Source: Fidelibacterota bacterium (lineage in GTDB: Bacteria > Fidelibacterota > Marinisomatia > Marinisomatales > TCS55). From it: a DNA stretch of 64,000 nucleotides. The stretch is from NCBI GenBank assembly GCA_046861385.1, contig JBHHTW010000003.1, positions 73,660 through 137,659 on the forward strand, read 5' to 3'. The notes under the pieces were generated by a model that did not search any database, had not been told where the DNA came from, and saw nothing but the letters and a program-made list of their open reading frames with translations. Made by a program: the position numbers and the translations under genes. This document shows positions 42,100 to 63,746 of the stretch, piece by piece (position 1 is the stretch's first letter; each line of letters opens with the position of its first letter).

Positions 42100-42116
42100 T
42101 TTGGTTTTTACTAAGC

Positions 42117-42158: not shown

Positions 42159-42180
42159 TATGTTCTATCAGCTGTACTTT

Positions 42181-45871: not shown

Positions 45872-46840
45872 TTATAGTCCTATTTTTAAAATATCGTGGA
45901 TATGTATCACACCGAATAAGGTATTTGGATTTTCTGGTTCCGTGACAAAAAGGGACGTAATACTGTATTCTTCCATGAGTTCCAATGCTTTAATCGCCAG
46001 CGTATTTGACGGTATTTTTTTTGGAGATTTACTCATTAAGAATTCAGCTGTTTTACTAAAAATATTTTCTCCTCCTCGTTCGATTCCCCGGCGGATATCC
46101 CCATCGGTAATGATACCGATTAATTCATCATCATCATTGATGACTCCTGTCATTCCAAATCCCTTTTCCGACATGGTCAGGAGCGCCTCCTGAATGCTGG
46201 TATCTTTATAGACAAGGGGGATATTTTTTTGATTGTGAATAATCTTATCTAGAGTCAGTAATAATTTTTTCCCCAGGTTCCCGCCCGGATGACGGATGGC
46301 AAAGTCTTCTTCCTTGAAGCCTTTTTTCTCCATAATGGAGATTGCCAGAGCATCCCCCAGAACCAGAGTAGCTGTGGAGCTGGAAGTCGGAGCGAGTCCC
46401 ATGGGATCCGCTTCAGACCGGACACCAATATCCAGATGAATTTGACTGATGTTTGACAGGGGAGAATCCGGATTTCCGGTAATGGTCATCATTTTGGCTC
46501 CAATATGTTCAATGGGGGGAATGAGTTCCAGCAATTCTTTACTTTTCCCGCTGTAAGATATGAGCACACAAACGTCTTCTTTGGTAATCATTCCCAAGTC
46601 GCCATGCCCGGCATCACAAGCGTGCATGAAAAATGACGGTATCCCTAAACTGGAAAAAGTAGCAGCACATTTTCTCGCTACATGTCCGGATTTTCCAAGG
46701 CCTAAAAAGATCACTTTTCCGGTGGCGTTGGCTATCGTATCAGCTGCCTGGCTGAAATCTTTTCCCAATGATTTTTCTAATTCCGCCAACGCTAGGATTT
46801 CTTTTTGAATGACTTTTTTCCCGGATGTTAAATATTCCAT
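45872..46840 (-). CDS. kdsD: KpsF/GutQ arabinose-5-phosphate isomerase (SIS plus two CBS domains)
   Basis: GLGKSGHVA, HGDLG, ISYSG, LAPTSS, HPGG.LG, IITDGDIRR and IHIHDIL. Confidence 0.92.
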   Translation of the reverse strand: MEYLTSGKKVIQKEILALAELEKSLGKDFSQAADTIANATGKVIFLGLGKSGHVARKCAATFSSLGIPSFFMHACDAGHGDLGMITKEDVCVLISYSGKSKELLELIPPIEHIGAKMMTITGNPDSPLSNISQIHLDIGVRSEADPMGLAPTSSSTATLVLGDALAISIMEKKGFKEEDFAIRHPGGNLGKKLLLTLDKIIHNQKNIPLVYKDTSIQEALLTMSEKGFGMTGVINDDDELIGIITDGDIRRGIERGGENIFSKTAEFLMSKSPKKIPSNTLAIKALELMEEYSITSLFVTEPENPNTLFGVIHIHDILKIGL

Positions 46841-46874
46841 ATTGTGTCCAATTATATCATGAGAATTTAAATGA

Positions 46875-48095
46875 TTATTTTAGTAAAATCAGTTTCTGAC
46901 TTTTACTAAAACTTTCGCTTACCATTTGCAAAATATAGACTCCGGTGGGGACGGAATTTCCAGACTCATCGTGTCCATCCCAAGTTAGATTATAAGTCCC
47001 CGGTTGATATTTTTTTGTCTCAGACATGATTTCCTGACCGAGGAGTGTATAAATTGTAAATGAAATATTCGATTGTTTAGGTACGCTGAAATCCACATGT
47101 GTCACAGGATTGAAAGGATTCGGATAATTCTGACTTAAAGAATATTCTCTAAATGGTCTAGTATTATCCTGATCAACTTGAACATAATCCAGTCCTATAA
47201 ACTCACTTACTCCACGAACTAAAGCATAAGCAGTCGAATCATATGAACCAGCTTGCGCACAATTCATATCTTCGTAGGTTAATGCCATCACATTTTCGCC
47301 CTGAGTCATCCACCACCAGCTTTCCGGGTATTGATCGGGAGTACCCGATGTCCAACTGATAAAATAATTCCATGATTCAATACCGCCGGGGAAATAGGAT
47401 TGGATTCCATTGATAAATTGCTGTTCAAGTAGTGCATAGTTATTAGAAGTACCTTGGGTAGCGTGGTAAACGAAATAGCGAGAACAATTATAAGCGGAAT
47501 GCATATTGAGAGCCACTTCTATCGGGTTACTAAGTGCCATAAGTTCAATGAAACGGTTTTTTAATACAATAACTTCTGGTTCCAAGATTGTATCATCCCA
47601 GCCGCTTTCAATATCTACACCGTTGGCATTCTCACGGGGATAACCCAATTCCACTCCATCCGGATTAAACATTGGAATAATGTGAAAAACACAATTTGCC
47701 CGTACAAATTCAGCAAAGGGCATTTCAGAAAGTAATAAATTGATAATTTCATTGGTAACCCAGAAAGATTCTTCTTCTCCGGGATGGGTTCTGGCATGAA
47801 TATAGACCCGTTTTAAAGATGAGGTTTCCAGATGATTTTCTGTAATTGTTAATTCCCATATGGCACGGTTTTGCGCAGTAGCTCCCAAGGAATCGATTAG
47901 GACATACGGGCTGTCCCCCCAACGATTCAAGTCGACGAGTAAGCTATCATAACCATACCCCCAATTTTGGTCAACCATATGAGTAATATCCTCATGATCC
48001 GGAATTAATCCGCATTTATTATCATCCTGCTGATAAATAATAGCTTGTCCAATTAAAATAGAATAGAAGTAAATAATTGCAGCAATGTGCCTCAT
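46875..48095 (-). CDS. Secreted M14 zinc carboxypeptidase with T9SS-like/FlgD C-terminal domain
   Basis: ARTHPGE, PMFNPDG, LNMHS and LTYE; C-terminal QNYPNPFNP...WDG.D.SG..VPTGVY. Confidence 0.85.
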   Translation of the reverse strand: MRHIAAIIYFYSILIGQAIIYQQDDNKCGLIPDHEDITHMVDQNWGYGYDSLLVDLNRWGDSPYVLIDSLGATAQNRAIWELTITENHLETSSLKRVYIHARTHPGEEESFWVTNEIINLLLSEMPFAEFVRANCVFHIIPMFNPDGVELGYPRENANGVDIESGWDDTILEPEVIVLKNRFIELMALSNPIEVALNMHSAYNCSRYFVYHATQGTSNNYALLEQQFINGIQSYFPGGIESWNYFISWTSGTPDQYPESWWWMTQGENVMALTYEDMNCAQAGSYDSTAYALVRGVSEFIGLDYVQVDQDNTRPFREYSLSQNYPNPFNPVTHVDFSVPKQSNISFTIYTLLGQEIMSETKKYQPGTYNLTWDGHDESGNSVPTGVYILQMVSESFSKSQKLILLK

Positions 48096-48114
48096 TATCT
48101 GATTTCCACTATAA

Positions 48115-49485
48115 TTATTTTTTTACTTTCCATAAATAATAGAATGTACCGCTGGCTGTTAATGCGATTCCGATCAAAGAAGGTATAAACGCCGTCACCA
48201 AAGTAATAATGAAGAATGCGGAATAAAGAATCAGAACAATGATCATGCTCCAAGGATAAAAAAGCGCTTTATACGGACGCTTCTTATTCGGCCATTTTTT
48301 CCGAAGAATATAAATCGCACCAAAGGTCAGTAGGTTAAAAATTGTGCTGGTCGCAGAAAAGAAATCAATAATCATTTCATAAGCATTGGTCCCGCTTGAT
48401 CCAGAAGAAATATAAGTTGAAACCACCGCAAAAATAAGTAAAACCGTTGCCCAGATTCCCTGTCCTATCAAAGCGTTATTCGGTGTTTTAAATACCGGAT
48501 GGAGTTTTTTAAACTTATTAAAAAACAATCCGTCTCTGGCCATGGCATGCCAGGTTCTGCTTTTACATAAAATTTGTGTGCTGATATTTCCAAAAGCATT
48601 TACAGCGACAGCAAGTGATATGAGAATTCCACCCGTGGCTCCCAGAACGACTTTCATGGCTGCGGAAGCAACCCATTTATTTTCTATTATGGCATTCACA
48701 TCTAATTGATATAAATATCCCAAGTTGGCTCCTAAATAGAGAAGCATTACTCCCCCGATTCCCAGGAAAAGAGACAGGGGTAATGTTTTTTGGGGATGTT
48801 TCACTTCCTCTGCCAAATAGGTTGCACCTTCCCATCCGCTAAAGGCAAAAAATGAATACCGTAATGCAGCGCCAATAGCAAGAATGGTCGGCCAGCCAAA
48901 GGAATCCGGCCACAATGGATTGGTAAAATTTTGGATATTGCCGGTTGAAAAGGAAGTTAAAGTAATACCGATGATGGCTCCCAACGCGCCAATTTTTATC
49001 GTACTGAAAAAGATTTGAAATTTTCCACTCATTCTGACACCAAAGAGATTGATGCCCGTCAAAAGCCATATAGTGATAAGGGCAATAATAAATGTGAGTG
49101 TCAGGCCGAATGGTGTTCCAACCAAAATTTCTGTAATGGCATTCAAGTATTCAGTAAAAACCAAAGCAACTGCTACTATTGAAGCTGTTTCAGATACAAA
49201 AAACATTGCCCAGCCTCGAATGAAAGCGATGTAGGGGCCATATGCTTCCTTCAGAAAAACATAGGGACCGCCGGATTTGGGAAGCATCGCAGTGAGTTCG
49301 GCATAGATTACTGCGCCAAAAATGGTAATGATTCCGCCGATGACCCAAACCAGACCAAATAGTGATGTACAACCCACCAAAGCCATAATGGGTGCAGGCG
49401 TTCGAAAAATTCCTGAACCAATAATCCGACTAATGACGATAGCGACAGACTCTTTTAGCCCCAATCCTTGTTTGTAATCAGTCAT
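48115..49485 (-). CDS. APC-superfamily amino acid permease
   Basis: IIGSGIF, YAEL..MLPKSGG.Y, FAFSGWE, AEEVKHP and AMARDGLFF. Confidence 0.92.
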   Translation of the reverse strand: MTDYKQGLGLKESVAIVISRIIGSGIFRTPAPIMALVGCTSLFGLVWVIGGIITIFGAVIYAELTAMLPKSGGPYVFLKEAYGPYIAFIRGWAMFFVSETASIVAVALVFTEYLNAITEILVGTPFGLTLTFIIALITIWLLTGINLFGVRMSGKFQIFFSTIKIGALGAIIGITLTSFSTGNIQNFTNPLWPDSFGWPTILAIGAALRYSFFAFSGWEGATYLAEEVKHPQKTLPLSLFLGIGGVMLLYLGANLGYLYQLDVNAIIENKWVASAAMKVVLGATGGILISLAVAVNAFGNISTQILCKSRTWHAMARDGLFFNKFKKLHPVFKTPNNALIGQGIWATVLLIFAVVSTYISSGSSGTNAYEMIIDFFSATSTIFNLLTFGAIYILRKKWPNKKRPYKALFYPWSMIIVLILYSAFFIITLVTAFIPSLIGIALTASGTFYYLWKVKK

Positions 49486-49500
49486 AATAAAAAATGAAGC

Positions 49501-50784
49501 TTATTTATAAAGATAATAACTTGTTGAAAGCTTTTTGAAATCCTGAATGGATTTTTCGTAAGATTGAAATAATGCTTCAGCATCTCCGTCTGAATTGATT
49601 ATTTGACTTAAATCCTGATTTCCCCAAAGTCGCGGGAGAGATGTTTTTAACTCAAAGTGCTCAGGATATAATTGATGAATCACACCCAATATTTGAATTC
49701 CCGTGGAGACCGGTTCAAATTCACGGTAATTTAAGATTGTAATTGAAACTCCCTCGCAGGGCACGTTTTCATATTTCGGATATAACGATTTTCCGGGCAA
49801 GGAAACTGGTGTAAAGGAGATGGGCTTAAAAGACACTCCGGGTAAATGTTTTAAAATCATCATTTGTGACAATTGCTTACCATCGACCCAAGGTGCTCCA
49901 ATCCATTTAAACGGATGGTCTGTTCCTCTTCCTTCGCTCACATTGGTTCCTTCAACCATACACATGCCTGCATAAATTACCGCCGTTTCCACATCTGGAA
50001 TATTGGGCGAAGGGGATATCCAGGGGACATTCGTTTCATGGTAATAACTATTTCTCCTCCAACCTTTCATTGGTATGACGGACAACTCAGGCGTGACCGA
50101 TATCCAATTTTCTCCCACAATCATTTTGGCTAGTTCACCTGCGGTGAGTCCATAACGATTGGGGATTGGATACATGCCCACGAATGATTTAAGATCCATG
50201 TGAAGGATGGGGCCGGAGACTTCGGTTCCTCCCAATGGATTGGGTCGGTCCAGAATCATTACCGGGATATTTGCTTCTGCGGCTGCTTCCATCACAAGAC
50301 CCATTGTAGAAATGTATGTATAAAATCGGGTGCCTACGTCTTGTATATCATAAATAATCAAATCAAGCCCATTCAGCATATCCAGTGTTGGTTTTCTAGT
50401 TTTTCCATATAGACTAAAAATAGTCGGAAAATCATTCAGTTCCTGATTAGTTATTTTTTGCCCGGCAGAAACATTTCCAAAAAAGCCGTGTTCAGGTGCG
50501 AAAATAGCTTTTAGATGAACATCATTCAATTTCATCAATAATTTATAATTTGGTAAACCACTCAGATCAACACCTGTATGGTTCGTAACCAGCCCGATAT
50601 TTTTCCCTTTAATTAAATGTATTTGATCTTTAATTAATACATCCAGTCCGTTTAAAACGTGTAAAATCTCGATGGGTGGAATATCTTTATTCTTGAATAA
50701 TTCTGATTGCTGCTGGTGTGTGGAAGGATGTTCCTGAGATTGAATGATCGAACAAAACACCAATAGAAAAAATACATACTTCAT
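49501..50784 (-). CDS. namZ: Second DUF1343 exo-beta-N-acetylmuramidase (NamZ, GH171), secreted
   Basis: GLVTNHTG, IFAPEHG, SLYG, YDIQDVGTRFYTY, LDRPNPLGG and SEGRGT. Start moved to MKYVFF at 50784. Confidence 0.9.
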   Translation of the reverse strand: MKYVFFLLVFCSIIQSQEHPSTHQQQSELFKNKDIPPIEILHVLNGLDVLIKDQIHLIKGKNIGLVTNHTGVDLSGLPNYKLLMKLNDVHLKAIFAPEHGFFGNVSAGQKITNQELNDFPTIFSLYGKTRKPTLDMLNGLDLIIYDIQDVGTRFYTYISTMGLVMEAAAEANIPVMILDRPNPLGGTEVSGPILHMDLKSFVGMYPIPNRYGLTAGELAKMIVGENWISVTPELSVIPMKGWRRNSYYHETNVPWISPSPNIPDVETAVIYAGMCMVEGTNVSEGRGTDHPFKWIGAPWVDGKQLSQMMILKHLPGVSFKPISFTPVSLPGKSLYPKYENVPCEGVSITILNYREFEPVSTGIQILGVIHQLYPEHFELKTSLPRLWGNQDLSQIINSDGDAEALFQSYEKSIQDFKKLSTSYYLYK

Positions 50785-50800
50785 TATAAAATGCCAGTCC

Positions 50801-53239
50801 TTACTTAACCATTGTGACTTTTCGAAAATCCATATTCGTCCCGGAGGTAATAGAAATAATATATATTCCCGACGAAACAGGATGTCCATTATTATTGAGA
50901 CCATTCCAAGTCCAAGTAAAATGATCGTGAGGGGAGGGCAGCAGGTTTGTACTGCGGATGGTTCTTCCCACCAAATCCGTAATGTGGATTTCCGTTCGCC
51001 GATTCGGGAGGTTATTATTAATTAAAATAGTCATGGAGGAATTTGACGGATTGGGAAAAACAGATTTAATTGACACTTGATCAGGAAAAGGAGTATCCTC
51101 GAAATGATTGACGGATAGCTGATCTTCATAAAAATCAACAATTTCGGCCATTATTTCACTCCGTTTCGATTCAGGGTAAATGGTTTCGAATCCAACGGAC
51201 AAATGAACAATACCGCCCAAATCGTTTCCGGATCCAAATGAACCAATAAATTGAATTCCCATGCCCCCTTCGGCATTATAATCAACTCCATTAAATTTAG
51301 CGCAAATGTCTGCTCCCACTGCCGGTTTAATTCCATCTGGCCAATCCACGTCATAAGTTCCGTTGCTTCCATTATCAAATGTAATATTATTGATGCCTTC
51401 AAAAATGGAACCGCTGGTACCAAAACCGCTGTAGGTTCCTTGGTGCCCCCCCGCCGCATCCGATATATAAACTGCTTTCAAATAGTCTAAGTAAAAGGCC
51501 TTGTCAGTTGAGGTTCCCTGAGCAGAAAGGTCGTAACCAATCTCAGATCCGGAAACAAAGAGAAAACCTCCATTCTCCAAATATGTTTGTACCAGGTCTT
51601 GTTCTTCATAAGTGAATGTGCTGGTGGCGGTTCCTTCTTCTCCCAATATCCAATCGACAAAATGATAATCCAAATTAATATTATTCTGGATTACCGCTTC
51701 ATTAGTGGCTGAATCAAAGGCTAATCCATTTTGAATCAGGGCATCACCATGCTGCCGAATAAAATTGTGTGTATTCGTCGTTCCACTGGTTCGGTCAAAA
51801 CCATTCACAACCAGACAGGAAACAGCGTCGGTTGTAGGTACAACACCTAAAAATTCTGTCTGTGGACTGGCACCAAATCCGTTCTGTCCAATGATGGATA
51901 AATAATACGGTTCTCCTTCATTCAAATTCTTAACGATAATGGGTCGCTGGTTGAAGACTCCTAATGTTTCGGTATTATTGGAGTTTAGAAAGGTCCGCAA
52001 AACTACAAATTCGTTAGCCGTTCGAGCTCCAGTGAAATCAATCATAATGTCACCATTCCCAACATTGCGAATGGATAAATTACCGGGAGTAGCCGGGGGA
52101 GAACTTGCACCAAATTTAACGAACAGAAGATCCCATAATTCAGGATCTGATCCATCATAGCCCATCGCCCAGATTCCGACTCCCTTTAAATTGTGATTTA
52201 ATGCGAAATCGTACTTTAGAGAGAGTGAAAGACTATCATCATACCAGCCCTGAAACCAATCCGGGTTTTGATATTTGTACCAAGGTGTCTGTGATTCTGA
52301 ATGCCACAGCTTTCCAAAAGATAGGGCATTGCTTTCCATTTCAGAATACAGTTTAGCCGTACCTGTTCCGGTAGTTGAAGCGCCGGCTGATCCGGAGGAT
52401 GTTGGCCATTCAAATCCAAAATATGGGCAGCCTAAAATGAGTTTATCTGCCTGATTATTAGTTTTGCTCAAATAATCATTTACAGTCCAAGTGATAGTGT
52501 AACCCGACCCGGTTAATGGAGCATTTGGACCTGAAGTTGAGCTACCGCTATAGTGGTAATCATATCCCATGATAAATAAACCATCACTGATTTCTGCTAA
52601 TGCGTTATAATCCCAGGCACTGCTCCAATCTACCGCCGGCATAGCGAGCGTCACTTGGGAACCGGGAATAGCATTATTAAAGGCATTCTTCAAATCTGTA
52701 ATAAATTGAACCATATTGTTTTTTTGGGAGGCAGGCATAACTTCAAAATCAATATTAACTCCATCTCCATTTCCTGAGGACACTGTATTAACAAGATTAT
52801 TGATGAGGTTTTGTCGGTGACTGCTGCTGCTTAAAAGTGTCGTTAAATCACTGTTGCTAAACAATGTTGCCGTCAAGACAACATCCGTTCCTGCCGCATG
52901 AGCAGTATTAATCAAAGAAGTCGGTGGCCAGCCATGATCGTTACTTATACCACCTGTTGCTGTAATTTCTGCGCTAAAATAGGCTATCGTAGATATGAGG
53001 TTAAAATTGTAGTTAGTCCATGATGTACCCATCCAGTATGGGTGATACCCAAACACTTCATGAGAAGGAGTGGTATGATTCGTTCGATAAAAACGGATAA
53101 AGGGAGCAGTATCAATTTGACGATCAATTTCTGTATAATGTGTATTATAATATTCCAGCTGTTGTTGGTGAATGCTGGGATTATGATTAGCAAAAGCAAT
53201 ACAAATTGAAAGGTGTATTATAAAAATATTTTGTCTCAT
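50801..53239 (-). CDS. Secreted GH18 hydrolase (chitobiase/peptidoglycan glucosaminidase-like) with FN3, an additional domain and T9SS-like CTD
   Basis: EVFGYHPYW, GDGVNIDFE, IMGYDY, LILG.PYFG and GVGIWAMGYD; C-terminal FPNPSN...SSGIY. Confidence 0.88.
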   Translation of the reverse strand: MRQNIFIIHLSICIAFANHNPSIHQQQLEYYNTHYTEIDRQIDTAPFIRFYRTNHTTPSHEVFGYHPYWMGTSWTNYNFNLISTIAYFSAEITATGGISNDHGWPPTSLINTAHAAGTDVVLTATLFSNSDLTTLLSSSSHRQNLINNLVNTVSSGNGDGVNIDFEVMPASQKNNMVQFITDLKNAFNNAIPGSQVTLAMPAVDWSSAWDYNALAEISDGLFIMGYDYHYSGSSTSGPNAPLTGSGYTITWTVNDYLSKTNNQADKLILGCPYFGFEWPTSSGSAGASTTGTGTAKLYSEMESNALSFGKLWHSESQTPWYKYQNPDWFQGWYDDSLSLSLKYDFALNHNLKGVGIWAMGYDGSDPELWDLLFVKFGASSPPATPGNLSIRNVGNGDIMIDFTGARTANEFVVLRTFLNSNNTETLGVFNQRPIIVKNLNEGEPYYLSIIGQNGFGASPQTEFLGVVPTTDAVSCLVVNGFDRTSGTTNTHNFIRQHGDALIQNGLAFDSATNEAVIQNNINLDYHFVDWILGEEGTATSTFTYEEQDLVQTYLENGGFLFVSGSEIGYDLSAQGTSTDKAFYLDYLKAVYISDAAGGHQGTYSGFGTSGSIFEGINNITFDNGSNGTYDVDWPDGIKPAVGADICAKFNGVDYNAEGGMGIQFIGSFGSGNDLGGIVHLSVGFETIYPESKRSEIMAEIVDFYEDQLSVNHFEDTPFPDQVSIKSVFPNPSNSSMTILINNNLPNRRTEIHITDLVGRTIRSTNLLPSPHDHFTWTWNGLNNNGHPVSSGIYIISITSGTNMDFRKVTMVK

Positions 53240-53258
53240 AACGTCAGCTCATTTTGAT

Positions 53259-54293
53259 TTAAAAAGTTAAACTGAGTGAGAAACCGGAAATGGAATTGAA
53301 AACACCAAACGACTGATTTACGTAGTCCAGATTTATATTTACATTTTTCATTAACTGATGACGAACTCCTCCACCTATTGAGAATCCTTGCTCCACATTA
53401 TCCACAAATAATGTGGATTGCCCCGCCCGCAAAAACACTTTTTTTCTCCAAGCATATTCAATCCCGGCATTCACATATTCCACATTATTATTGGGATGAA
53501 CAGCATCAATGGATACTGTAAAGATATGGGGGCCGGATTTGAGTAAATTTGTACTCATTCCCACTCTAAAAATGAGAGGCAGAGGCCATTTCCATGTATC
53601 GAGGTGGCCATCTATACGATCATTATTACCAGTAAGGTTTTCATCAATATCATGAGTGATCCTTGTATCTTTTCCCTCTAATTGTAATTTCTCCCCAAAA
53701 TTTGAAACGTTCATGCCAATACGAATATTACGATTCCGTGTTATAAACAATGAACCGATGTCAATAGCCATTGTTGAAGCCGACATATGATAGATATGTT
53801 GTTGTATAAACTTCATATTTAAACCTAAAGAGAAACTATCGGTGAATCTGCGTCCATAGCTTATTCCAAGTGCCAAGTCATTTGAGCCAAATTTCTCGCC
53901 GGTACCTTCGGGTAATGCAACAGTTCGTACTATCATATCATCCATAGTAATCGAAGTAGCTGAGAGCCCTAGTACTCCGTTGCGCTGAATTGGAATAATA
54001 ACTGCTGCAAAGTTGAAGCGAATGTCAGCTACCCATGGAAGATGAAAAAATTGAGCAGTTGTTTTTTTTGCAGATGCAATTCCTGCCGGATTCCAGTATA
54101 GAGCTGTTGCGTCATCCGCTATGGATACGAAGGCATTACCCATGGCCCTAGCACGTGCACCCACTCCAAACTCAAGAAATGCCGCTGCGGCAGTGCCTAC
54201 TTTACTTACGTGCCTATTGTATTGGCTTAGGGCGGGATGTACCAATAACAGAAAAATTATTGATGATATGAGCTTATGTCTGGAAGTGTACAT
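53259..54293 (-). CDS. PorV/PorQ-family outer-membrane beta-barrel
   Basis: SKVGTAAAAFLEFGVGARARAMGNAFVSIADDATALYWNPAG and LPLIFRVG. Confidence 0.88.
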   Translation of the reverse strand: MYTSRHKLISSIIFLLLVHPALSQYNRHVSKVGTAAAAFLEFGVGARARAMGNAFVSIADDATALYWNPAGIASAKKTTAQFFHLPWVADIRFNFAAVIIPIQRNGVLGLSATSITMDDMIVRTVALPEGTGEKFGSNDLALGISYGRRFTDSFSLGLNMKFIQQHIYHMSASTMAIDIGSLFITRNRNIRIGMNVSNFGEKLQLEGKDTRITHDIDENLTGNNDRIDGHLDTWKWPLPLIFRVGMSTNLLKSGPHIFTVSIDAVHPNNNVEYVNAGIEYAWRKKVFLRAGQSTLFVDNVEQGFSIGGGVRHQLMKNVNINLDYVNQSFGVFNSISGFSLSLTF

Positions 54294-54295
54294 GT

Positions 54296-57200
54296 TTATT
54301 TGATGACGGCAAATTTTCCAATTTTTTCACCAATTCCCGGTGCATCAACGTGGTAGAGGTAAATTCCGAACGCAATTTCAAGACCGTCTTTTGAAAGCAT
54401 ATTCCATGATTCTGCCCCATCTTCCAAAACACTTTCGTGATTTATCGTATCAACGAGAAAGCCTGACAAGGTATATATCTTGATTTTGCATTTTTGCGGT
54501 AGATGAATAAAATCAACCTTTCGAGTTCCTCTTCCTGATACGTAGAGGTGTTGGCGTTCCCACGATGCCGTAACAATATACGGATTTGGAACAACAGCGA
54601 TTCTACTCAACTCCTGACGAGCAAGTGATTTATCAATGCGGGAAACAGTCGTAACGAAACTATAGATATCGTTTGATGAAAATGGCTTTGTAGTCAGTAT
54701 TGTTAAAATATCTCCATCCTCAACGTGCTCTACCGGGGCCGATGTTGTATCATAGACAACTGTGGTATCATTGATAAAAATTGTGTCGATTTGTATTGAA
54801 TCAATTTTAAAAGATACTGAGAAACTTGGGTCTAGACCAGTTTCATCGGGTAGGAGAATAATTGTTTCTTCCGGGTCCCATTGTCTGTCTCCATTCTCAT
54901 CCATGATAATAAATCGAGTTTCCCGATTCTCAGAAGTATTCCATATATTAAAAGGAGCTGAAACACCAAACAGCTCATCTTGTGAAAGAGAATCACCGGT
55001 ATTTCCTCCCCATATTAGTTCAAAATCAGCGGGGTAGAGAGATCCGTATACACTAATTTCTGGAATATAATCGCAATCGCCGGATATCCAACCGCTTGAA
55101 TCTTCTAAGAGTGCCAGGCGGTCATTATAAACTAAAATTTGCATACCATCAATAATTGGGTTTAACGGTTCACCCTCTATGAAATTACTTCTATTTATTG
55201 GATAATATTGATAGGAGGCTATATATGCTCCCCCTTCGCAAAGTGGTCCGCTGATGCACGAAATAATTCCAAAATCGTTGTTTACCTCAAAGTGGATTCC
55301 CTCCTCAAATTCCTGTGAACCATCCAAGGATGTTACTATAACAGAGCCTGGTATTAGGTTTTTCTTACGAGTACTGAACCAATCACCTGAAATGTCAACG
55401 GTGTCAGTAAAAATTTCTTGATTGACAACTGAATAATATGTTTTTTCCCCTTCAGTGAAAAACTCCACAGAGTATTCCCATTTATCATGGATACTATCTG
55501 GATCAACTGTGTTAATAATCACTGAACCTGTAGCAGCGCCTGAATCATGAACGACAATTTGAAGTCCGTTTTCTGGACTATTGGGTGGGATGTACCCTGC
55601 TGCGGGAGCATCCGGAACCACTTCAGCTACATTTTCTCCGAGGACTAAAACGTTCCCGCTGGCATCTAAATCAACAATGATGGTACACTCAGAAGGAGCC
55701 AAAGGTTGGAGTTTGTCGAATTCGCTCAGTCCACGGTCATAAAAATCTTCATCATAACCTTTATCGTACGATGTAATCGCATAGTAATAGGTTTGACCAT
55801 TCTGTACGGTTGTATCCTCCCAAAAATGCCTTAAGCCACCATCTTTTCCCATATTAAACTGAATACCGTTAAAAGCGATGGGATGGGGACCCTTCAAGCC
55901 ATTTTTCAAATCGAATTGGGCGATCGGTTTTTTGAAAGTTAAATTGCCATAAGCATCTGTGATAATCCAAGGTTCTAAAAATGCAGGATCGGTACTGCGG
56001 TAGATTCGATATCCTTCAAAATCGTATCCGTAAATGGGATCTCTGGAATTCTCAGCTGTTTTATCCCAGTACAATGTTACTTTACTATCTCCGGGTACTG
56101 TAGTAAGATTTGGTTTACCGGGCGGTTTAGAAAAGGAATAATCGGCGTCATAGATTTTCTGCATGGTTTGGGCATTTCTTAAAATATCATCCAAATCCTG
56201 CCCAAAAAGCATGGCGATAGCAAACTTTTTACGTTCGCCAGCCAATAGTGAGAAATAGCCAGACCCAAAAAGGAATGTGATATCTTTTGTCTGTTCAGGG
56301 ACATCAAAAAACCCCGGTCTAAGTTGTTTCCACAGTTGCTCATCATCAGAAGCTGTGATATTGGGCCAGGGAGCAGCAAAAAAACTGGTGAGTCCAATTT
56401 GGTCTGACTCAGCATTATCGGTATACTCAAAATTGGGTTCGCCGATATCGGGTATTCCATTTCCTTCAGTTCCATCAGCGTCAGGACCGGTATAATCCCC
56501 ATGTGTTGGACCCAGCCCATCTGAACCAATATCGTCGTTATCAATATCCCAATCATCATCATTGTCAATTCCGTCAAATTGACTTTCATCTACCATCCCA
56601 TCAAAATCGTTATCAATTCCGTCATGAGGATTTCCGGGTGATTCAAGGAATGTCCAACCAAAGTAAGCAGGTTTGAATCCTCCTTTGGCGTTGCTCCAAT
56701 TATCGTGATCCCACTGATATACGATGGAATTCTCCCGATCGAACCATGAGTCATCATCTCCTTGATCCCCGTCATCACCAATATCGGCATCGCCATACAT
56801 TCCAAAACACACACTATCAAGCGTTGTTTTACCCACATTGGTTATCCAGTATGTCCAGATAATGATATCTTCTGCGGCAGGATGGGACCATTGGTATCCC
56901 CTTACTTCCACTTGAATGCCTAACCCTCGCCGGAGAGTATCGGTCGAATCCGGGAAGAATTGAAATTCATCGTTATAATAATCGTCCATAACAAAGTACG
57001 ATTCCTGATCCGCGCGGGCATACTTGCCATATTGTCCGTTCCAAACACCATCCCAATCTGATGATTTATTGACCCATGAGTCCGGCCAAGAACTGGGATC
57101 ATCACTCATTGCTATATTTTCTTGATTTGGATTAGCATAGCCTGGTAATGGTTCAAAGCCCCACTGATAACCGGAGTCAGATAAATCTTTTCCATTATTG

Positions 57201-57541
57201 GAAACCATACCATCTGAAATGATATGTCGTCTTGTACCGTTTTTCAAAACCACGCTGGCACCAACAACAGGAGTAAATTCAGCAATATATGATTTTCCAG
57301 AGCCGACGGGATAGATACCAGAGTCATAGCGCCCGGCAATGGTCCAATCCCCTATGCCGCCGAAATTATAGAATCGTGTAAGGATTTTGTTACCGTTATG
57401 AACACTGAATTTTCTGTCCGCTCTTCCTGCCGGTTTATAGACCGACTGTTTTTGTAGCACGACTTGGTCTTTGCTAATTTGAGCTGCAAGAACAGCAAAT
57501 AGTCCAAAAACCAGAGCAACTGTATATCCGTTGTGTTTCAT
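54296..57541 (-). CDS. Large secreted protein with Asp-rich Ca-binding repeats, FN3-like domain and VVPNPY-type CTD
   Basis: Signal peptide; DGIDNDFDGMVDE; PP.KP....GDSKVTLYWD; FEGYRIYRS; NGQTYYYAITSYD; IAVVPNPY..FIHLP..GIYLYHVDA. Confidence 0.75.
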   Translation of the reverse strand: MKHNGYTVALVFGLFAVLAAQISKDQVVLQKQSVYKPAGRADRKFSVHNGNKILTRFYNFGGIGDWTIAGRYDSGIYPVGSGKSYIAEFTPVVGASVVLKNGTRRHIISDGMVSNNGKDLSDSGYQWGFEPLPGYANPNQENIAMSDDPSSWPDSWVNKSSDWDGVWNGQYGKYARADQESYFVMDDYYNDEFQFFPDSTDTLRRGLGIQVEVRGYQWSHPAAEDIIIWTYWITNVGKTTLDSVCFGMYGDADIGDDGDQGDDDSWFDRENSIVYQWDHDNWSNAKGGFKPAYFGWTFLESPGNPHDGIDNDFDGMVDESQFDGIDNDDDWDIDNDDIGSDGLGPTHGDYTGPDADGTEGNGIPDIGEPNFEYTDNAESDQIGLTSFFAAPWPNITASDDEQLWKQLRPGFFDVPEQTKDITFLFGSGYFSLLAGERKKFAIAMLFGQDLDDILRNAQTMQKIYDADYSFSKPPGKPNLTTVPGDSKVTLYWDKTAENSRDPIYGYDFEGYRIYRSTDPAFLEPWIITDAYGNLTFKKPIAQFDLKNGLKGPHPIAFNGIQFNMGKDGGLRHFWEDTTVQNGQTYYYAITSYDKGYDEDFYDRGLSEFDKLQPLAPSECTIIVDLDASGNVLVLGENVAEVVPDAPAAGYIPPNSPENGLQIVVHDSGAATGSVIINTVDPDSIHDKWEYSVEFFTEGEKTYYSVVNQEIFTDTVDISGDWFSTRKKNLIPGSVIVTSLDGSQEFEEGIHFEVNNDFGIISCISGPLCEGGAYIASYQYYPINRSNFIEGEPLNPIIDGMQILVYNDRLALLEDSSGWISGDCDYIPEISVYGSLYPADFELIWGGNTGDSLSQDELFGVSAPFNIWNTSENRETRFIIMDENGDRQWDPEETIILLPDETGLDPSFSVSFKIDSIQIDTIFINDTTVVYDTTSAPVEHVEDGDILTILTTKPFSSNDIYSFVTTVSRIDKSLARQELSRIAVVPNPYIVTASWERQHLYVSGRGTRKVDFIHLPQKCKIKIYTLSGFLVDTINHESVLEDGAESWNMLSKDGLEIAFGIYLYHVDAPGIGEKIGKFAVIK

Positions 57542-57551
57542 AGTCTTTTCA

Positions 57552-60308
57552 TTAGAAGCGGATCGTTAACCCCAGTTTTATCTGCCGGGGTGAAGAATAA
57601 TAATCCGGTCTTACTAAATAATCATTCAGAGTGTTATAAGATTGCTCTTGAGGTGTGTAAGTAGGAATGAGGGTATAAGTCGCTCTCCCGGTATCGGTGT
57701 AAACCAGTATCTCATTGCGCCGATCAAACAAATTATAAATTGCACAATGCAAGGACATGCTCACATTATTAATTTTGAAATTCCAAAAACTGCGAACATC
57801 AATAATAAATTGATCTGGCTTTTGCTCACTATTCTCATATGCTATACGCGTTCCGGCTAATGAAGGTGTGTAAGGCAATCCGCTGCGATACTGAAGGACA
57901 AAGCTGACTCCGCTATTGGAAGCAGGATGGAACGTTATTGTACTATTCATTGTATGCCTCTGATCCCAATCCAAAGCAACCAGTTGTTTCTCCGGTTCGT
58001 TGCCGCTAAGCGCATCAAAATATGCTGTTGCCGGGTCGGATGCGTTTCCTTCTGCAAAGGAATAAGTGTAATCCAATGCACCGGACACGAAGCCGGATGA
58101 TCGTTTGGTGAGAGAAACTGAAATACCCCGAACGTTTCCATAATCACGATTTATGTAGAGGGCATATCTGTCTCCGGCGATGAACGTATCAACAATCTTT
58201 GTTCCCAATAAACTGCGGATATCTTTGTAATACCCAGTTACATCGATGACGGTATTACTCCCGACCTGCTGTTGAAAGCCCACTTCGTATTGTGTAGTTC
58301 TTTCCGGCTCTAGGTCTGCGTTTCCCATTGTTGTACTCAGCCCGGGTGTTACTTCGAAATCAGGATTTGCATACAGGTAACTATAAGGCGGAATCTGGAA
58401 AAAATGTCCATATGAAAAATGCATCACACCTTGATCAGAAACAGGGAATGCAAGAGCAAGACGAGGACTAAATTGTGACTTTGATGAAGCATCTTTAAAC
58501 CAGTACTCCAATCGATCATTATCAGTTTTTGTGTTATCAGAACGTATTTCATTCTCGTCGATTATTCCATTTCCGTTTTCATCATAATACTGATTAATAG
58601 GCTTTAATGGCTGCAAGTAGTTAGGGTCTGAATTATCCGATAATATTTTCCACGCAGGATCAAAGTAATCCCATCTAATACCCAAATTTATTACAAGGTC
58701 CTTAAACTCCACTTTGTCTTGAATATAGGTAGAGAATTCAGTTGGTGTTCTATTCAATTTATTAAAATTAGGTGAGTTTTCTTTAGGTAGTTGAGGCGAG
58801 TAATCAGTGTTTTCATTATAAAGAATAGTGAAGCTTGTTTCCTGAAGTCTGCTTGTTTGCAATTCTACTCCCAACTTTACTTGATGAAGGTGTGTGATTT
58901 GGCTCATTAGCTCCGCTTTGTATGTTCTAATCATTGAATCCCGATCATAGTGTCCCATCCTGTACCCTCCGATATAGAAATTATATCCGGGCGCAACCGT
59001 GAAAACCCTTGGGTCAACACTGTAACTATTAGAATCAAGTGGATCATCATGAACATAGTACTGATAACGATTTGATATTTGTGAGTAACTCAATGTAAAG
59101 AAAGTAGCCGAACTTAGCGATTGATCAAGCTTTGTAATGAAGCTGCTGTTTGTACGAATACGTTGATAATCTCCTTCCGGGTTATACTTAAATTTGTGAT
59201 TATAGGTCTGAAACCTCGTTTTATTGGCAGTAATGTTTGCGGTTAACTTTGTTCGTTTTGTCAGTTTGAGACTCATTTTTGCCTGCCCTGATAATTGTTC
59301 ATTCCAATTCATGGGTGTAAAATTGCCATCTCCAGGTTTCACCAACTCCCATGTTGTTGTTACAGGATTTTGGACAAAGGAATCCGGCCAATAACGGCGT
59401 TGACCGTAGAGGAATCCTTCGTTAAAATAATAGCGTCCGGAAGTATAAAAGGAACCTCTGCTGTTTGTAAAAGGGACTGGCCCACTGAAACTCCCCTGCC
59501 AGTCACGCAAGCTGGAAGGGTCAACATCATCAATGTTCAGGAAAAGACTTGTATCAGAGCTCCAAAAATCTCCCAAATTCATTTGCAAATCCCCCTGATA
59601 ACGATCAAAATCCCCATCCTTTGTAACGATATTTACTACTCCAGACATTGCATGGCCGTATTCAGCATTAAATGTGCCACTAATGAATTGTAACTCCTGG
59701 ATGGCATTATTTTCAATTTCCACTGCCATTCCGGAGGTATAAGGATCAGTAACAGAGATACCATCGATTAAATAGACGATTTCGCTGCCTCTTCCTCCGC
59801 GAACATGCATCGTGCCATCAGAACCAACAACTACACCAGCCTGCAGCGATACGATTTCTTCAAGTTCTTCAACCGGAAGTATCGCAATTTCATCTGAACC
59901 AACATTTGCTTGCGAATAGGTAATGTCGGGCTGCACCAGCGGTCTCTCGGAAATCACGGTAATTTCTTCAAGGCCTACCACTGTGGGTGTAAGATCGAAA
60001 TTAACGGCTGAAGTTAAGTCTATCCGAATACGTACCTTCTGAATAACAATCTCATTATATCCAATCATTGAGGCACTAATTTCATATATTCCAGGTGGTA
60101 TTTGTAATACGAAATAATGACCGTTTATATCAGTTGCGGCTCCCAAATCAGTTCTTTTCAGGATCACATTTACCCCCACTAAGGGTTCTCCCGTTGAAGC
60201 GTCTCTTACCTCGCCGGTTAGTTTTCCTGTAGTTCCGGAGAAAAGCAAGCTTGTACTGATAAAAAAAGGAAGAAGATATTTCCATTCAAAATTTGTCAAA
60301 CTTTTCAT
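57552..60308 (-). CDS. TonB-dependent receptor (carboxypeptidase-regulatory-domain type)
   Basis: GTTGKLTGEVRD..TGEPL, HVRGGR, SGTFNAEYG.AMSGVVNIVTK, YIQDKVEF, GNADLEPERT and PRQIKLGLTIRF. Confidence 0.92.
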   Translation of the reverse strand: MKSLTNFEWKYLLPFFISTSLLFSGTTGKLTGEVRDASTGEPLVGVNVILKRTDLGAATDINGHYFVLQIPPGIYEISASMIGYNEIVIQKVRIRIDLTSAVNFDLTPTVVGLEEITVISERPLVQPDITYSQANVGSDEIAILPVEELEEIVSLQAGVVVGSDGTMHVRGGRGSEIVYLIDGISVTDPYTSGMAVEIENNAIQELQFISGTFNAEYGHAMSGVVNIVTKDGDFDRYQGDLQMNLGDFWSSDTSLFLNIDDVDPSSLRDWQGSFSGPVPFTNSRGSFYTSGRYYFNEGFLYGQRRYWPDSFVQNPVTTTWELVKPGDGNFTPMNWNEQLSGQAKMSLKLTKRTKLTANITANKTRFQTYNHKFKYNPEGDYQRIRTNSSFITKLDQSLSSATFFTLSYSQISNRYQYYVHDDPLDSNSYSVDPRVFTVAPGYNFYIGGYRMGHYDRDSMIRTYKAELMSQITHLHQVKLGVELQTSRLQETSFTILYNENTDYSPQLPKENSPNFNKLNRTPTEFSTYIQDKVEFKDLVINLGIRWDYFDPAWKILSDNSDPNYLQPLKPINQYYDENGNGIIDENEIRSDNTKTDNDRLEYWFKDASSKSQFSPRLALAFPVSDQGVMHFSYGHFFQIPPYSYLYANPDFEVTPGLSTTMGNADLEPERTTQYEVGFQQQVGSNTVIDVTGYYKDIRSLLGTKIVDTFIAGDRYALYINRDYGNVRGISVSLTKRSSGFVSGALDYTYSFAEGNASDPATAYFDALSGNEPEKQLVALDWDQRHTMNSTITFHPASNSGVSFVLQYRSGLPYTPSLAGTRIAYENSEQKPDQFIIDVRSFWNFKINNVSMSLHCAIYNLFDRRNEILVYTDTGRATYTLIPTYTPQEQSYNTLNDYLVRPDYYSSPRQIKLGLTIRF

Positions 60309-61393
60309 TTTTGTATATTTATTTCTTCATCTGGGCTTTTAGTCGGTGAATGTATAATTCGTATCAATTTTTTATCTGCATCTAATTGTGCATGAGTACC
60401 GATAGGGAGTGTCACATTGTATTTGTAATGTCCAATGGGGAAATTAGCTAAAACTGGTTTTTCCATGTCAGAAAAATATTGCTTTAGCACTTCCATCATT
60501 TTAAAACTATCCGGATCGTCTGGAGGTTCATCAGACCTCCGAGTGAATTTACCCAGAATTACACCTTGTAGGTGGTCGAATTTTCCTCCCAGTTTTAGTT
60601 GAGAGAGATAGCGGTCTATTCGATAGGGTGCTTCACCAATATCTTCAATAAACAAGATTTTACCATCCGTATCTATTTCGTACGGTGTCCCCATCAATGT
60701 GCAGATTAATGATAGGTTTCCACCAATTAATTGCCCTGTTCCTACTCCCGGATGAAGAATAATAACGGAATCTTTCAATCCAAAGGAAGCAAGATCAATG
60801 GTGTAACCCTCGGGATTCACTTGCTCAATTGCTCTCCAAAAATATGTATCGGAAATTGGAGATAAATTATCTTTATTACCCAATCCGTACATGGGATTTG
60901 GCGAATGAAAAGTAATCAACCCCGTTTTCTTATGAATGGCAAGATGTAATCCAGTAATATCGCTAAATCCAATTAAAATTTTGGGATTGTTTTTGATTAC
61001 GTTGTAATCGAGCATATCAAGAATTCGCGTTGTGCCATAACCACCGGTACCAGGGAAAATTGCCTTGACGGATTGATTTTGAAACGCATCCATTATTTCA
61101 TGGGCACGCCTCTCATCAGATCCTCCAAGGTATCCCCAAGACCGAAATAAATCAGTAGATTGAATTGTAATATATCCACGATTTTCCAGACGTTTTTTAG
61201 CAAGAGCCATGCGGGTACTGTCTAAGGATCCGGAGGGAGCAATAAACATAATGGTGTCTCCCGGTGTCAGATGATTAGGTAAAATTGATTTAGGTGTTTT
61301 GGGACTTTCAGCAGGAAAAAATAGGTTTAGTGAAATCAGAAGAAAGGGAGAAAACAATTTCATGAACTGGATTATTGGCAAAGAATTTTTCAC
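60305..61393 (-). CDS. ldcA: LD-carboxypeptidase (peptidase S66) with apparent signal peptide
   Basis: GGYG, IGFSDIT (Ser), GGNL, LFIEDIGE (Glu) and FPIGH (His). Confidence 0.9.
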   Translation of the reverse strand: MKNSLPIIQFMKLFSPFLLISLNLFFPAESPKTPKSILPNHLTPGDTIMFIAPSGSLDSTRMALAKKRLENRGYITIQSTDLFRSWGYLGGSDERRAHEIMDAFQNQSVKAIFPGTGGYGTTRILDMLDYNVIKNNPKILIGFSDITGLHLAIHKKTGLITFHSPNPMYGLGNKDNLSPISDTYFWRAIEQVNPEGYTIDLASFGLKDSVIILHPGVGTGQLIGGNLSLICTLMGTPYEIDTDGKILFIEDIGEAPYRIDRYLSQLKLGGKFDHLQGVILGKFTRRSDEPPDDPDSFKMMEVLKQYFSDMEKPVLANFPIGHYKYNVTLPIGTHAQLDADKKLIRIIHSPTKSPDEEINIQK

Positions 61394-62097
61394 TATTCAA
61401 TAATGGTATACTTAGTTTTGATAACTTGATATGGAAAGGCATTAAAATGCCACCATTCAGTCGTAATAGTACTGAATCCTGCTTTTTCCATGGCATCTCT
61501 CAATATTCGGCGATTGGATACCTGTTCTCCGGTTAATTCTCCCACTGCGAGTAAGGAATCCTCAAGGACAGGAAAAGCCAATTCTCCAAAATAATCATAT
61601 TTGGTTCCCATGTCCAGTGGATTCCCAAGCGTATCGGCAAGGGTGAGGTCAACCGCAGCCCCGAAATTATGGATCGATCCGGTTTTGGGATTTGCAACGA
61701 ATTGTGTTCGTTCTGATTCAGGGACGTTATCCAGGGTATTCCATAACGTCCATTGAATGCTTCTGGGACGGAGGCCGTCATAAATAAGAAAGCGAAGGTC
61801 AGGATGATCTTCTTTAAGGAAGTTATGAGCCATCACCAGCTTTTGAGCCGGGAGTTGGCGTAGATAGCAAATTTCCAAGTCACCATATACATCCGCATTC
61901 ATGAAATTGTCAGTTGTGGAATACTTCAGTTCGACAAACATAGTGGAGTCTGCTTCAAGAATATTTACTAAATTATTTTTACCAATAGATTCATCTGAAA
62001 AAGACTGTATAGTCTCTGGGGTCCCACAGCCAAAAGTGCACATGGAAAAATAGCCAAATATTAGAATGAACAACAAATTTAGTCGGCTATAAATCAT
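61393..62097 (-). CDS. D-alanyl-D-alanine dipeptidase (M15D, VanX/DdpX family), lipoprotein
   Basis: LKYST.DNF, YDGLRP, SIHNFGAAVD, DMGT.YD and EWWHF; lipobox TFGC. The ATG overlaps the SpmB stop (TGATG). Confidence 0.9.
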   Translation of the reverse strand: MIYSRLNLLFILIFGYFSMCTFGCGTPETIQSFSDESIGKNNLVNILEADSTMFVELKYSTTDNFMNADVYGDLEICYLRQLPAQKLVMAHNFLKEDHPDLRFLIYDGLRPRSIQWTLWNTLDNVPESERTQFVANPKTGSIHNFGAAVDLTLADTLGNPLDMGTKYDYFGELAFPVLEDSLLAVGELTGEQVSNRRILRDAMEKAGFSTITTEWWHFNAFPYQVIKTKYTIIE

Positions 62098-62642
62098 CAA
62101 AAAAGAAATTTGCAAATGTATACAGCTGTTAAAACACCAACAGCATCGGCAATGAGCCCGGCTGCCAATGCATGTCTGGATTTTCGAATACCCACAGATC
62201 CAAAATATACAGCTAACACATAAAATGTAGTTTCTGTGGACCCAAACATGGTTGCTCCGATTTTCGCATAAATGGAGTCTGCTCCGTATTCATTAATCAA
62301 ATCCGTCAGTAATCCTAATGAGCCGCTCCCAGAAAGAGGCCTCATGAGAGCCAAAGGCAGGTTTTCAGGCGGGAAACCGATAGCTGTTAGCAGGGGAGAT
62401 AAAAAATTCAACAAAACGTCCAAAGCGCCGGACGCTCTGAACATTCCAATGGCAACCAAAATAGCCACGAGGTATGGAATAATCCTAACGGCGATTGTAA
62501 ATCCGTCTTTTGCGCCGTCCACAAATGATTCATATACTTTTACTTTTTTAAAGATCAGCGCATATAAAGGTATCCCCACCAGTAAAAAAGGAATGATATA
62601 TTTTGAAAATTCGTTTATTCCATTTACAAATGAATCAATCAT
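62097..62642 (-). CDS. spmB: Spore maturation protein B family membrane protein
   Basis: VYESFVDGAKDG, RPLSGSG and GSTETTFYVLAVYFGSVGI. Confidence 0.92.
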   Translation of the reverse strand: MIDSFVNGINEFSKYIIPFLLVGIPLYALIFKKVKVYESFVDGAKDGFTIAVRIIPYLVAILVAIGMFRASGALDVLLNFLSPLLTAIGFPPENLPLALMRPLSGSGSLGLLTDLINEYGADSIYAKIGATMFGSTETTFYVLAVYFGSVGIRKSRHALAAGLIADAVGVLTAVYICKFLF

Positions 62643-63237
62643 GGCTGCCCCCACCATTTTCAAAGGAATACCGTTTTGTTTTTTCCAATGTTTTTACTGC
62701 AATAATTGCTGCTATTGTAGACATCCCAGTTGCGATAATGGTCGTGATGAAAATTTGACTTGATAATGATCCCATAAGAGCCACCACCGTAGCCGGAAGA
62801 ATCAATTGAACGCTGGATGTATTTATGGCGAGAAATGTACACATGGCATTGGTGGCTGTTTCTTTGCTTGGGTTGAGTTCCTGCAATTCTTCCATGGCTT
62901 TCAGTCCCAAGGGAGTAGCGGCATTTCCTAACCCTAAAATATTGGCTGCCATATTCAACACAATGGAACCAATAGCAGGATGGTCCTCCGGTACGTCGGG
63001 AAATAATCGAATAGTGATGGGACGCAGTCCTCGGGCAATGATTCTAATTAATCCGGATTCTTCGGCAATTTTCATGATTCCAAGCCAAAGGGCCATAATT
63101 CCGATTAATCCAATGGCCAATTCGACGGCGACTTTTGCCATGTTAATGGCGGATTCAGTTACTGCATCAATATTACCGTTAATGGTTCCAACAATAACAG
63201 CAATAAGCATCATTCCAAACCAAATGTAGTTTAGCAT
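62635..63237 (-). CDS. spmA: Spore maturation protein A family (nucleoside-gate domain) membrane protein
   Basis: MLNYIW, LWLGIMKIAE.SG, ANILGLGNAATPLGLKAM and INTSS. Confidence 0.92.
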   Translation of the reverse strand: MLNYIWFGMMLIAVIVGTINGNIDAVTESAINMAKVAVELAIGLIGIMALWLGIMKIAEESGLIRIIARGLRPITIRLFPDVPEDHPAIGSIVLNMAANILGLGNAATPLGLKAMEELQELNPSKETATNAMCTFLAINTSSVQLILPATVVALMGSLSSQIFITTIIATGMSTIAAIIAVKTLEKTKRYSFENGGGSHD

Positions 63238-63279: not shown

Positions 63280-63744
63280 TCATAAGAATCTTTCCACAAT
63301 TTTAACCGTTTCAGGCAATTTATTTACCATCTTTTCAATCACTCCGCCCTGTTCAGCATAAGCCACAAAAACTCTTCCCGCTAAACCAATGATAAATTCA
63401 TTCCTTACCACCGCATTTTGTGAGGTCATTCTCGTAACAGAAGGCGGAAACTTTGATACGATCAGCATTCTGCCGTAATTAATATGCGGTTTCCATTCAC
63501 TTGGTATTCTTTTCCAAATTCCCCGCGCGGGACTAATAATGATGGGCTGTGATCCTTTGAGCAAAATACGCAGACATTCTTTCTCCATGGGGGAATGAAA
63601 CCCGCTGATGACTGATTGCCCTTCTTTTCGCCATTTCAAACACTGGTCATAAGTTTGTAAAATTTTATCTCCAGGGCATTTTACCGAGCAAAACAAAGCA
63701 ATAGGTTCGGTTTTTAGTAATTCTATATTTCCAAAAGAAAACAA
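63280..63744 (-). CDS. Short DprA/SMF-like (SLOG fold) protein
   Basis: ALFCSVKCPG, VISGFHSPMEKECL.ILL and RNEFI..LA..VFVAYA..GG; TTG start with AAGGA RBS. Confidence 0.75.
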   Translation of the reverse strand: MFSFGNIELLKTEPIALFCSVKCPGDKILQTYDQCLKWRKEGQSVISGFHSPMEKECLRILLKGSQPIIISPARGIWKRIPSEWKPHINYGRMLIVSKFPPSVTRMTSQNAVVRNEFIIGLAGRVFVAYAEQGGVIEKMVNKLPETVKIVERFL

Positions 63745-63746
63745 GT

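Follow-up and report, generated by a model that had tools for sequence, protein, structure and literature searches.

A putative peptidoglycan-foraging gene cluster in Marinisomatia that lack detectable diaminopimelate synthesis genes

In Bacteroidota, a polysaccharide utilization locus (PUL) is defined by its SusC/SusD pair. Salvage of peptidoglycan (PG) is described for Bacillus subtilis, which carries a NagZ-AmiE-NamZ-MurQ recycling operon (PMC8054146), and for Tannerella forsythia (10.1101/2021.12.02.470905). Foreign muropeptide use is already published for another class of the phylum considered here: in the available text on Fidelibacter multiformis IA91, of class AB16, exogenous PG fragments serve for carbon, energy and wall through a MurQ route (PMC11652737). 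We analyzed a 64,000-nucleotide stretch (the window) of a genome from Fidelibacterota, class Marinisomatia (assembly GCA_046861385.1, contig JBHHTW010000003.1, positions 73,660 to 137,659), in which twelve genes encode predicted PG hydrolases, transporters and a TonB-dependent receptor. The gene content, gene order, linkage in relatives and absence of detectable diaminopimelate (DAP) synthesis genes observed here suggest that the cluster probably serves to digest the wall of other bacteria extracellularly and to take up the fragments, apparently as a source of DAP. It is an open question which marine organisms consume the walls of bacteria; Marinisomatota are widespread and have scarcely any cultured members. 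A literature search, made largely outside subscription papers and without supplements, found no account of this cluster, of a linkage between LysA and GH18, or of the receptor triads described below.

LysA, wall glycosidases and DAP synthesis

The twelve open reading frames (ORFs) all lie on the minus strand at 45872 to 63237 of the window, separated in gene order by −29, −19, −1, −4, 10, 2, 19, 19, 15, 19 and 34 bp. The 19 bp between GH18 and NamZ takes the NamZ start at 50781 and becomes −104 with the longest ORF start. With the former start every overlap or gap is at most 34 bp, and so the close-packed, co-oriented run described in an initial sequence-only reading is confirmed, as are, by Pfam and NCBIfam scans, its family assignments, with refinements for the M14 peptidase and kdsD. 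A promoter and terminator scan gave chance-level counts (63 versus 59.5 and 14 versus 17.0), and co-transcription is predicted only from the spacing.

The window ends where contig C89 ends, which truncates the run, and the cluster goes on in contigs C28 and C9. The three are joined as C9-C28-C89 by 55-base overlaps at their ends, each unique to its pair when all contig ends of the genome (completeness 97.85%) are compared, and the joined gene order is that found on single contigs of two relatives, G005 and G008. The whole PG cluster spans about 60 kb, of which the twelve genes form the downstream tail. Outside the window it begins with an M20 peptidase, GHL10 (a family that includes the PG hydrolase DigH), Amidase_3, two more receptor cassettes and LysA, and continues with a further triad, an M23-like protein (E 0.0036 for its best PDB match), PBP4, a cytoplasmic S66 (S66a) and a 2.9-kb insert before the window genes. 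The twelve genes together are not the unit that is conserved; their order was seen only in this genome and, to the limit of its contig, in the relative G004. The receptor-containing arrangement is specific to the lineage of these two genomes; in G005 and G008, S66 abuts GH18 with no receptor between.

All known DAP routes start with DapA and DapB. A profile search found dapB in none of 151 genomes of the class, and the same model matched 29 of 301 phylum genomes, none from a family inside the class, and 11 of 14 controls. No dapF was found in 41 genomes, no member of the DapA family in five, and no DAP dehydrogenase over the cut-off in five. An alternative lysine route was likewise missing over cut-off (LysX 0/5, homocitrate synthase 0/5), the near-misses for homocitrate synthase being 413.2 in G008 and 405.5 in G014 against 413.55. 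The G008 gene (L283:4312-5439) sits beside acyl-CoA and 2-oxoacid dehydrogenase genes and not in a lysine operon.

The LysA of the cluster passes the equivalog model TIGR01048 (367.7 versus a cut-off of 297.9). LysA is present in 63 of the 151 class genomes and a GH18 orthologue in 71; 48 genomes have both, and in 42 of these the two genes are at most 2.5 kb apart, which makes LysA the most constant neighbor of GH18. The distance in the genome of the window is about 28 kb in the joined contig order. Because LysA is tied to wall glycosidases where DAP synthesis genes are absent, the simplest reading is that it is a salvage enzyme for the DAP of other bacteria. Another group-IV decarboxylase of this genome scores under the LysA cut-off; flanked by an ATP-grasp protein and by a membrane protein that probably has an M23-like tail, it may belong to a small biosynthetic cluster (G000:C5:13351-18010, L105).

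Both murA and murE were over cut-off in 40 of 41 genomes, and since murA is kept, we rejected an auxotrophy for N-acetylmuramic acid (MurNAc). The DNPR motif is present in 32 of 33 aligned MurE sequences, one having an ambiguous base, and is described as that of the meso-DAP-adding MurE in the available text of two papers (PMC3829189, PMC3681970). MurE may therefore add meso-DAP, as predicted from this motif, in which case cells without DAP synthesis would be DAP auxotrophs.

Hydrolases and candidate transporters

The GH18 glycosidase (50801 to 53239) has Fn3-like and unnamed middle domains and a type IX secretion system (T9SS)-type tail, as annotated with Pfam and NCBIfam. It is the only GH18 detected in the genome, and each of five genomes has a single one. 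Sequence searches of the PDB placed YdhD first and SleL fourth, with many chitinase entries among the 52 matches, and Pfam found no chitin-binding module. In relatives, the neighbors of GH18 are NamZ, LysA, PBP4, S66, SpmAB, Amidase_2, MurQ, GH20 and NagZ-AmiE in shuffled order, and it is this gene context, not structure, that points to PG as the putative substrate. Shorter forms of about 480 aa, without the middle domains, occur at L040:10194-11663, L042:9270-10760 and L044:5992-7413. The catalytic domain is apparently missing or divergent in G011 and G020, where the middle part stays beside LysA and NamZ. An unnamed alpha/beta domain (GH18 residues ~470-710) is common to other T9SS-tagged proteins of PG clusters (L025:9806-12418, L061:5022-7712), and Atlas matches of the middle domain to Bacteroidota clusters named hypothetical or "xanthan lyase" (0.88-0.90) are leads only.

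NamZ, a GH171 exo-beta-N-acetylmuramidase (49501 to 50781; PF07075 and PF20732; PDB 4k05, 261.7 bits), has a predicted signal peptide and no T9SS tail. The genome has three NamZ paralogues, one of them also in the window (26347 to 27630, minus strand, 36% identity). An S[IT]HQxQ-like motif directly follows the signal peptide in both GH18 and NamZ, which are unrelated enzymes (window 53150-53180 and 50690-50720, minus strand). Among orthologues in L021-L046 it occurs in 17 of 29 GH18 rows and in 18 of 33 NamZ rows; of 2939 other ORFs, 2 have it, and one of these is a NamZ fragment. The motif is possibly a sorting or pairing signal.

Three peptidases would act on stem peptides. The M15D D-Ala-D-Ala dipeptidase (61393 to 62115; PF01427, with its motifs) has a hydrophobic N-terminus in all four rows listed and is probably an exported lipoprotein. 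The neighboring LD-carboxypeptidase-family peptidase (S66b, 60305 to 61393; PF02016 and PF17676) has the triad motifs and is predicted to be exported, with a signal-like N-terminus in four of five listed rows, as against none of 12 for the upstream paralogue S66a on contig C28. The best PDB matches of S66b are MccF-like S66 entries, and its sequence does not fix the substrate. MpaA had been named as a precedent for the secreted M14 carboxypeptidase (46875 to 48095, with a T9SS-type tail), but the protein is not MpaA-like in our searches: NF007897 gave no match at E 0.001, and all six PDB matches are M14 carboxypeptidase or CCP-like entries, none named MpaA, so the protein is better described as Nna1/CCP-like. 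Its orthologues sit in PG clusters of G004, G005, G008, G012, G110 and G087, and a true MpaA adjoins LysA in G008. Catalytic-type motifs were found in GH18, S66, M15D and M14, and we take their residues to have catalytic roles.

Export was judged by a hydrophobicity heuristic and orthologue comparison rather than by SignalP. Hydrophobic N-termini are present on M15D, S66, GH18, NamZ and M14, in agreement with the signal peptides and lipoboxes noted before, and likewise on the 1081-aa protein and PorV described below. The C-terminal sorting domains ascribed to GH18 and M14 were found on both. The test for T9SS combined this domain with SprA, which was over cut-off in five of five genomes, and T9SS tails also occur outside the window on the amidase and GHL10.

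As for self-recycling, AmpG, AnmK and Mpl each gave no match over cut-off in the genome of the window, and an AmpG-like match in G007 was below cut-off. MurQ is present, and homologues of NagZ, AmiE, NamZ and MurQ all appear to be encoded (NagZ-AmiE by domain content). A second PG and amino-sugar group is found at the left edge of the window; it comprises a SpoIID-like gene and, on the plus strand at 1 to 5389, the end of a NagZ-AmiE-type fusion (GH3 and beta-lactamase fold), an AmiA-like amidase and a NagB-like deaminase.

Two Gate-domain membrane proteins, SpmA-like (62635 to 63237; PF07670) and SpmB-like (62097 to 62663; PF07670, with a weak NF007811 match below cut-off), open the run. In B. 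subtilis, dacB and spmAB form an operon. Among 20 distinct spmA loci, a sample biased by being mostly fetched around PG genes, 16 have S66, PBP4 or M15D, which release D-Ala, no more than a few genes away. This position beside D-Ala-releasing peptidases, like that in dacB-spmAB, suggests that SpmAB is a candidate importer of D-Ala or dipeptides. Similarly, the APC-family permease (48115 to 49485, assigned by Pfam and NCBIfam), whose orthologues of 77-93% identity lie in the PG clusters of relatives, is a candidate importer of DAP or stem amino acids. The last gene of the run (45872 to 46840) was first listed as kdsD. It passes only the KpsF/GutQ subfamily model (TIGR00393; 335 bits, below the KdsD equivalog cut-off of 505) and faces an RfaE-like heptose adenylyltransferase gene at 44692-45183, and it is probably an unrelated lipopolysaccharide passenger at the cluster edge.

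The receptor triad and its linkage to PG genes

Between S66b and GH18 lie the genes for the TonB-dependent receptor (57552 to 60308), a secreted partner of 1081 aa (54296 to 57541) and an outer-membrane barrel of the PorV/PorQ family (53259 to 54293; NF033709, 202.7 bits against a cut-off of 90). The receptor, identified with Pfam and NCBIfam, is not SusC (TIGR04056, 63.6 bits versus a cut-off of 368.25). The partner has no Pfam or NCBIfam family, a single weak match among PDB sequences, and only unnamed clusters in Atlas. Its structure model, of middling quality and mostly beta (predicted local distance difference test 64, predicted template modeling [TM] score 0.47), gave only low-TM matches in Foldseek when used whole. 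Residues 42-468 match the supersandwich of GH15, GH94, GH65, GH116 and mutarotases (Z 17.8, root-mean-square deviation 3.2, 248 aligned), and farther along the chain the model resembles PorZ (Z 11.7). The matched regions are N-terminal domains of glycosidases and phosphorylases, and the partner lacks a catalytic barrel. It thus appears to consist of a galactose-mutarotase-like beta-supersandwich with Asp-rich loops, beta-sandwich domains and a C-terminal sorting-type domain, and it is a candidate surface binding protein, a shared fold in itself showing no function. The PorV-family barrel is its probable dedicated shuttle or anchor.

Such triads are generic, as the genome has eight runs of receptor, partner and PorV; a PG marker lies within 10 kb of four of its ten PorV-family genes, and the PorV of the window has six. 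We examined linkage with partner trees (quick IQ-TREE, SH-like approximate likelihood ratio test) that leave out partner ORFs below 700 aa in one set and 800 aa in the other. Flank scans covered 71 of 127 unlabelled neighbors and 36 of 69 representatives and, for clade A, 39 further places out of 60 listed; the counts are uncorrected for kinship. The subclade of the window's own partner, A1, has ten rows from five families with different neighbors (support 96). A PG marker is present in seven of the ten fetched flanks, and G126, in which PBP4 and S66 lie some 15 kb off, raises this to eight; the remaining two members are on short contigs. G165 has LysA-GH18-NamZ on one flank and a DppA-family D-aminopeptidase on the opposite one. 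The paralogous clade B is PG-linked in 35 of 62 rows versus 7 of 40 for the remaining paralogues, and in 30 of 35 rows of Marinisomatota type whose flanks reach 9 kb or more. Thus, the receptor paralogue found in the PG cluster varies by lineage, being of clade A1 here and of clade B in many relatives. The expected linkage of receptor and PG genes in relatives stands for A1 and in part for clade B, but not for sister subclade A2 or for triads in general. We had also considered the receptor link as a one-off insertion, a view dropped when clade A, sampled more widely, fell into a linked A1 and an unlinked A2.

Other runs of this kind were noted. At window positions 33996-44520, a second receptor-partner-PorV run, conserved in G004, includes a sodium:solute symporter, ceramidase-like proteins and a 779-aa protein without a Pfam family. 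A TonB receptor, a sodium:solute symporter and a GH84-type beta-N-acetylglucosaminidase form one run at 11616-17620. At L139:1287-3502, an NlpC/P60-SH3 peptidase, an enolase-family epimerase with GHL10 and an alanine racemase lie beside a clade B triad and may form an alternative stem-peptide module. The 33% GC insert that parts spmA from the upstream PBP4-S66a (window 63280-64000 and G000:C28:1-2199) encodes an unknown protein of 281 aa, DUF3800, a small ORF and, as its last gene, a DprA-like ORF (63280 to 63744, minus strand), which matches PADLOC PsyrA (E 2.9e-14); the insert is a possible defense islet.

Proposed route, alternatives and known systems

From the sequences we infer the following route. 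The T9SS-tagged GH18, M14, amidase, GHL10 and M23-like protein would cut foreign wall outside the cell. The 1081-aa supersandwich protein on its own PorV-family barrel would capture fragments for the TonB receptor, in the role of SusD without being SusD. In the periplasm, NamZ, NagZ-AmiE, PBP4, S66b and M15D would free MurNAc, N-acetylglucosamine (GlcNAc), D-Ala and short stem peptides, which the APC permease, SpmAB and solute symporters would take in. Sugars would then pass through MurQ and NagB, LysA would convert imported meso-DAP to lysine, and the DNPR-type MurE may use DAP in the cell's own wall.

Several findings weigh against this route. In a fold search with GH18, chitinases rank first and SleL is at rank 26, within 3.4 Z units. 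Subclade A2 has no PG marker in 37 flanks, with one M23 neighbor by Pfam; two A1 members count weakly (G236 only through a protein with the unnamed GH18 middle domain, G034 through LysA alone); clade B is mostly unlinked outside Marinisomatota-labelled rows (linked in 3 of 14); and because kin are not independent, the linkage counts overstate. LysA is lacking in 88 of the 151 class genomes and a GH18 of this type in 80. Family f12 has neither in 20 genomes, and its member G035 keeps the DNPR MurE; perhaps not every member depends on DAP, or MurE uses another diamino acid. A Deinococcus control matches the LysA model and has no dapB, so the class is not alone in pairing LysA with a lack of DAP synthesis, and the wall of IA91 is reported to contain lysine (PMC11652737, available text).

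Of the other explanations, an unlikely one is that the enzymes do forage foreign wall while the receptor of the window imports something else, such as general peptides, so that only small diffusible products enter. The non-PG contexts of A2 and a partner with no characterized relative fit this view, against which stands the PG linkage of A1. It is still less probable that the genes turn over the cell's own wall by a periplasmic route of the Bacillus or Bacteroidetes style (NagZ, AmiE, NamZ, MurQ), with the triad as an unrelated insertion. The same enzyme families do recycle the own wall in B. subtilis (PMC8054146) and Rhodothermus (PMC6987092), as far as the available text of these papers goes; the triad is missing from the S66-GH18 junction in G005 and G008, and triads are common. 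However, GH18, M14, amidase and GHL10 have T9SS tails, which point outward, triads of clades A1 and B repeatedly lie next to PG genes in differing arrangements, and decarboxylation of DAP by cells unable to make it pays only with DAP from outside. The initial preference for foreign wall over self-recycling is partly supported, by LysA without DAP synthesis beside GH18-NamZ, by the lack of AmpG, AnmK and Mpl in this genome, by SprA and by the PG linkage of subclade A1, but not as far as the specificity of GH18, which neither sequence nor fold fixes, or the state of the prey, dead and live being inseparable here.

We regard it as very improbable that this is a locus for chitin or GlcNAc oligomers, in which GH18 is a chitinase or chitobiase and PG-recycling genes are nearby through shared amino-sugar metabolism. 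The chitinase matches in fold and sequence searches and the GH20 neighbors in some relatives are what such a locus would have, but YdhD is the best sequence match, no chitin-binding module and no second GH18 accompany the enzyme, and its constant neighbors LysA and NamZ have no role in chitin use. Least probable, in our estimate, is an attack on living neighbors by predation or epibiotic lysis. Although the amidase, M23-like and GHL10 proteins are secreted and might break cells open, and isolate IA91 depends on growing bacteria (PMC11652737, available text), most window enzymes are of exo-acting or trimming kinds that suit fragments, and the locus, to which the search was confined, showed no apparatus for delivery or contact.

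Digestion of foreign wall with import of its pieces remains our preferred reading. A wider proposal is tentative, and on balance we doubt it: the whole class would build a DAP-type wall without making DAP, and many members would mine foreign walls for DAP and lysine through a SusD-independent system (a TonB receptor and a T9SS-exported supersandwich protein on a PorV barrel), with clades A1 and B as dedicated wall-fragment receptors and SpmAB as a D-alanine or dipeptide importer. The cluster supplies testable enzymes and receptors, concrete substrate hypotheses for the triads and SpmAB proteins, a culturing prediction (PG or meso-DAP as a medium supplement) and, where dapB is absent, LysA as a marker of wall foraging.

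Like AB16 and IA91, this lineage would use foreign PG fragments as a resource through MurQ. As described in the available text, AB16 is without PG-synthesis genes and takes released muropeptides (PMC11652737), whereas the present lineage keeps murA and murE and is not an auxotroph of that type; it has no detectable DAP synthesis genes and carries genes for secreted enzymes that cut the polymer and for receptor triads of the outer membrane. Homologues of the NagZ, AmiE, NamZ and MurQ of the B. subtilis recycling operon are all present, which makes sequential exo-digestion plausible, but the host is a diderm, with T9SS-tagged GH18, amidase and GHL10, a TonB receptor, and D-Ala-releasing peptidases and LysA in the cluster. 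Self-recycling of the E. coli type (AmpG-NagZ-AnmK-MurQ-Mpl) differs in the three components that were not over cut-off here. As in the available account of T. forsythia, three NamZ paralogues are present and foreign PG would supply a missing wall precursor, although that precursor is apparently meso-DAP rather than MurNAc. The comparison with a PUL made in the sequence-only reading holds for the co-location of a TonB receptor, an adjacent surface protein, secreted and periplasmic hydrolases and inner-membrane transporters. It fails for the receptor, which does not pass the SusC model, and for the partner, which is not of the SusD family but a beta-supersandwich that carries a sorting-type tail and has a PorV-family barrel to itself; the run also has no regulator. 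By analogy, the cluster may work like a PUL joined to PG salvage of the B. subtilis and Tannerella type.

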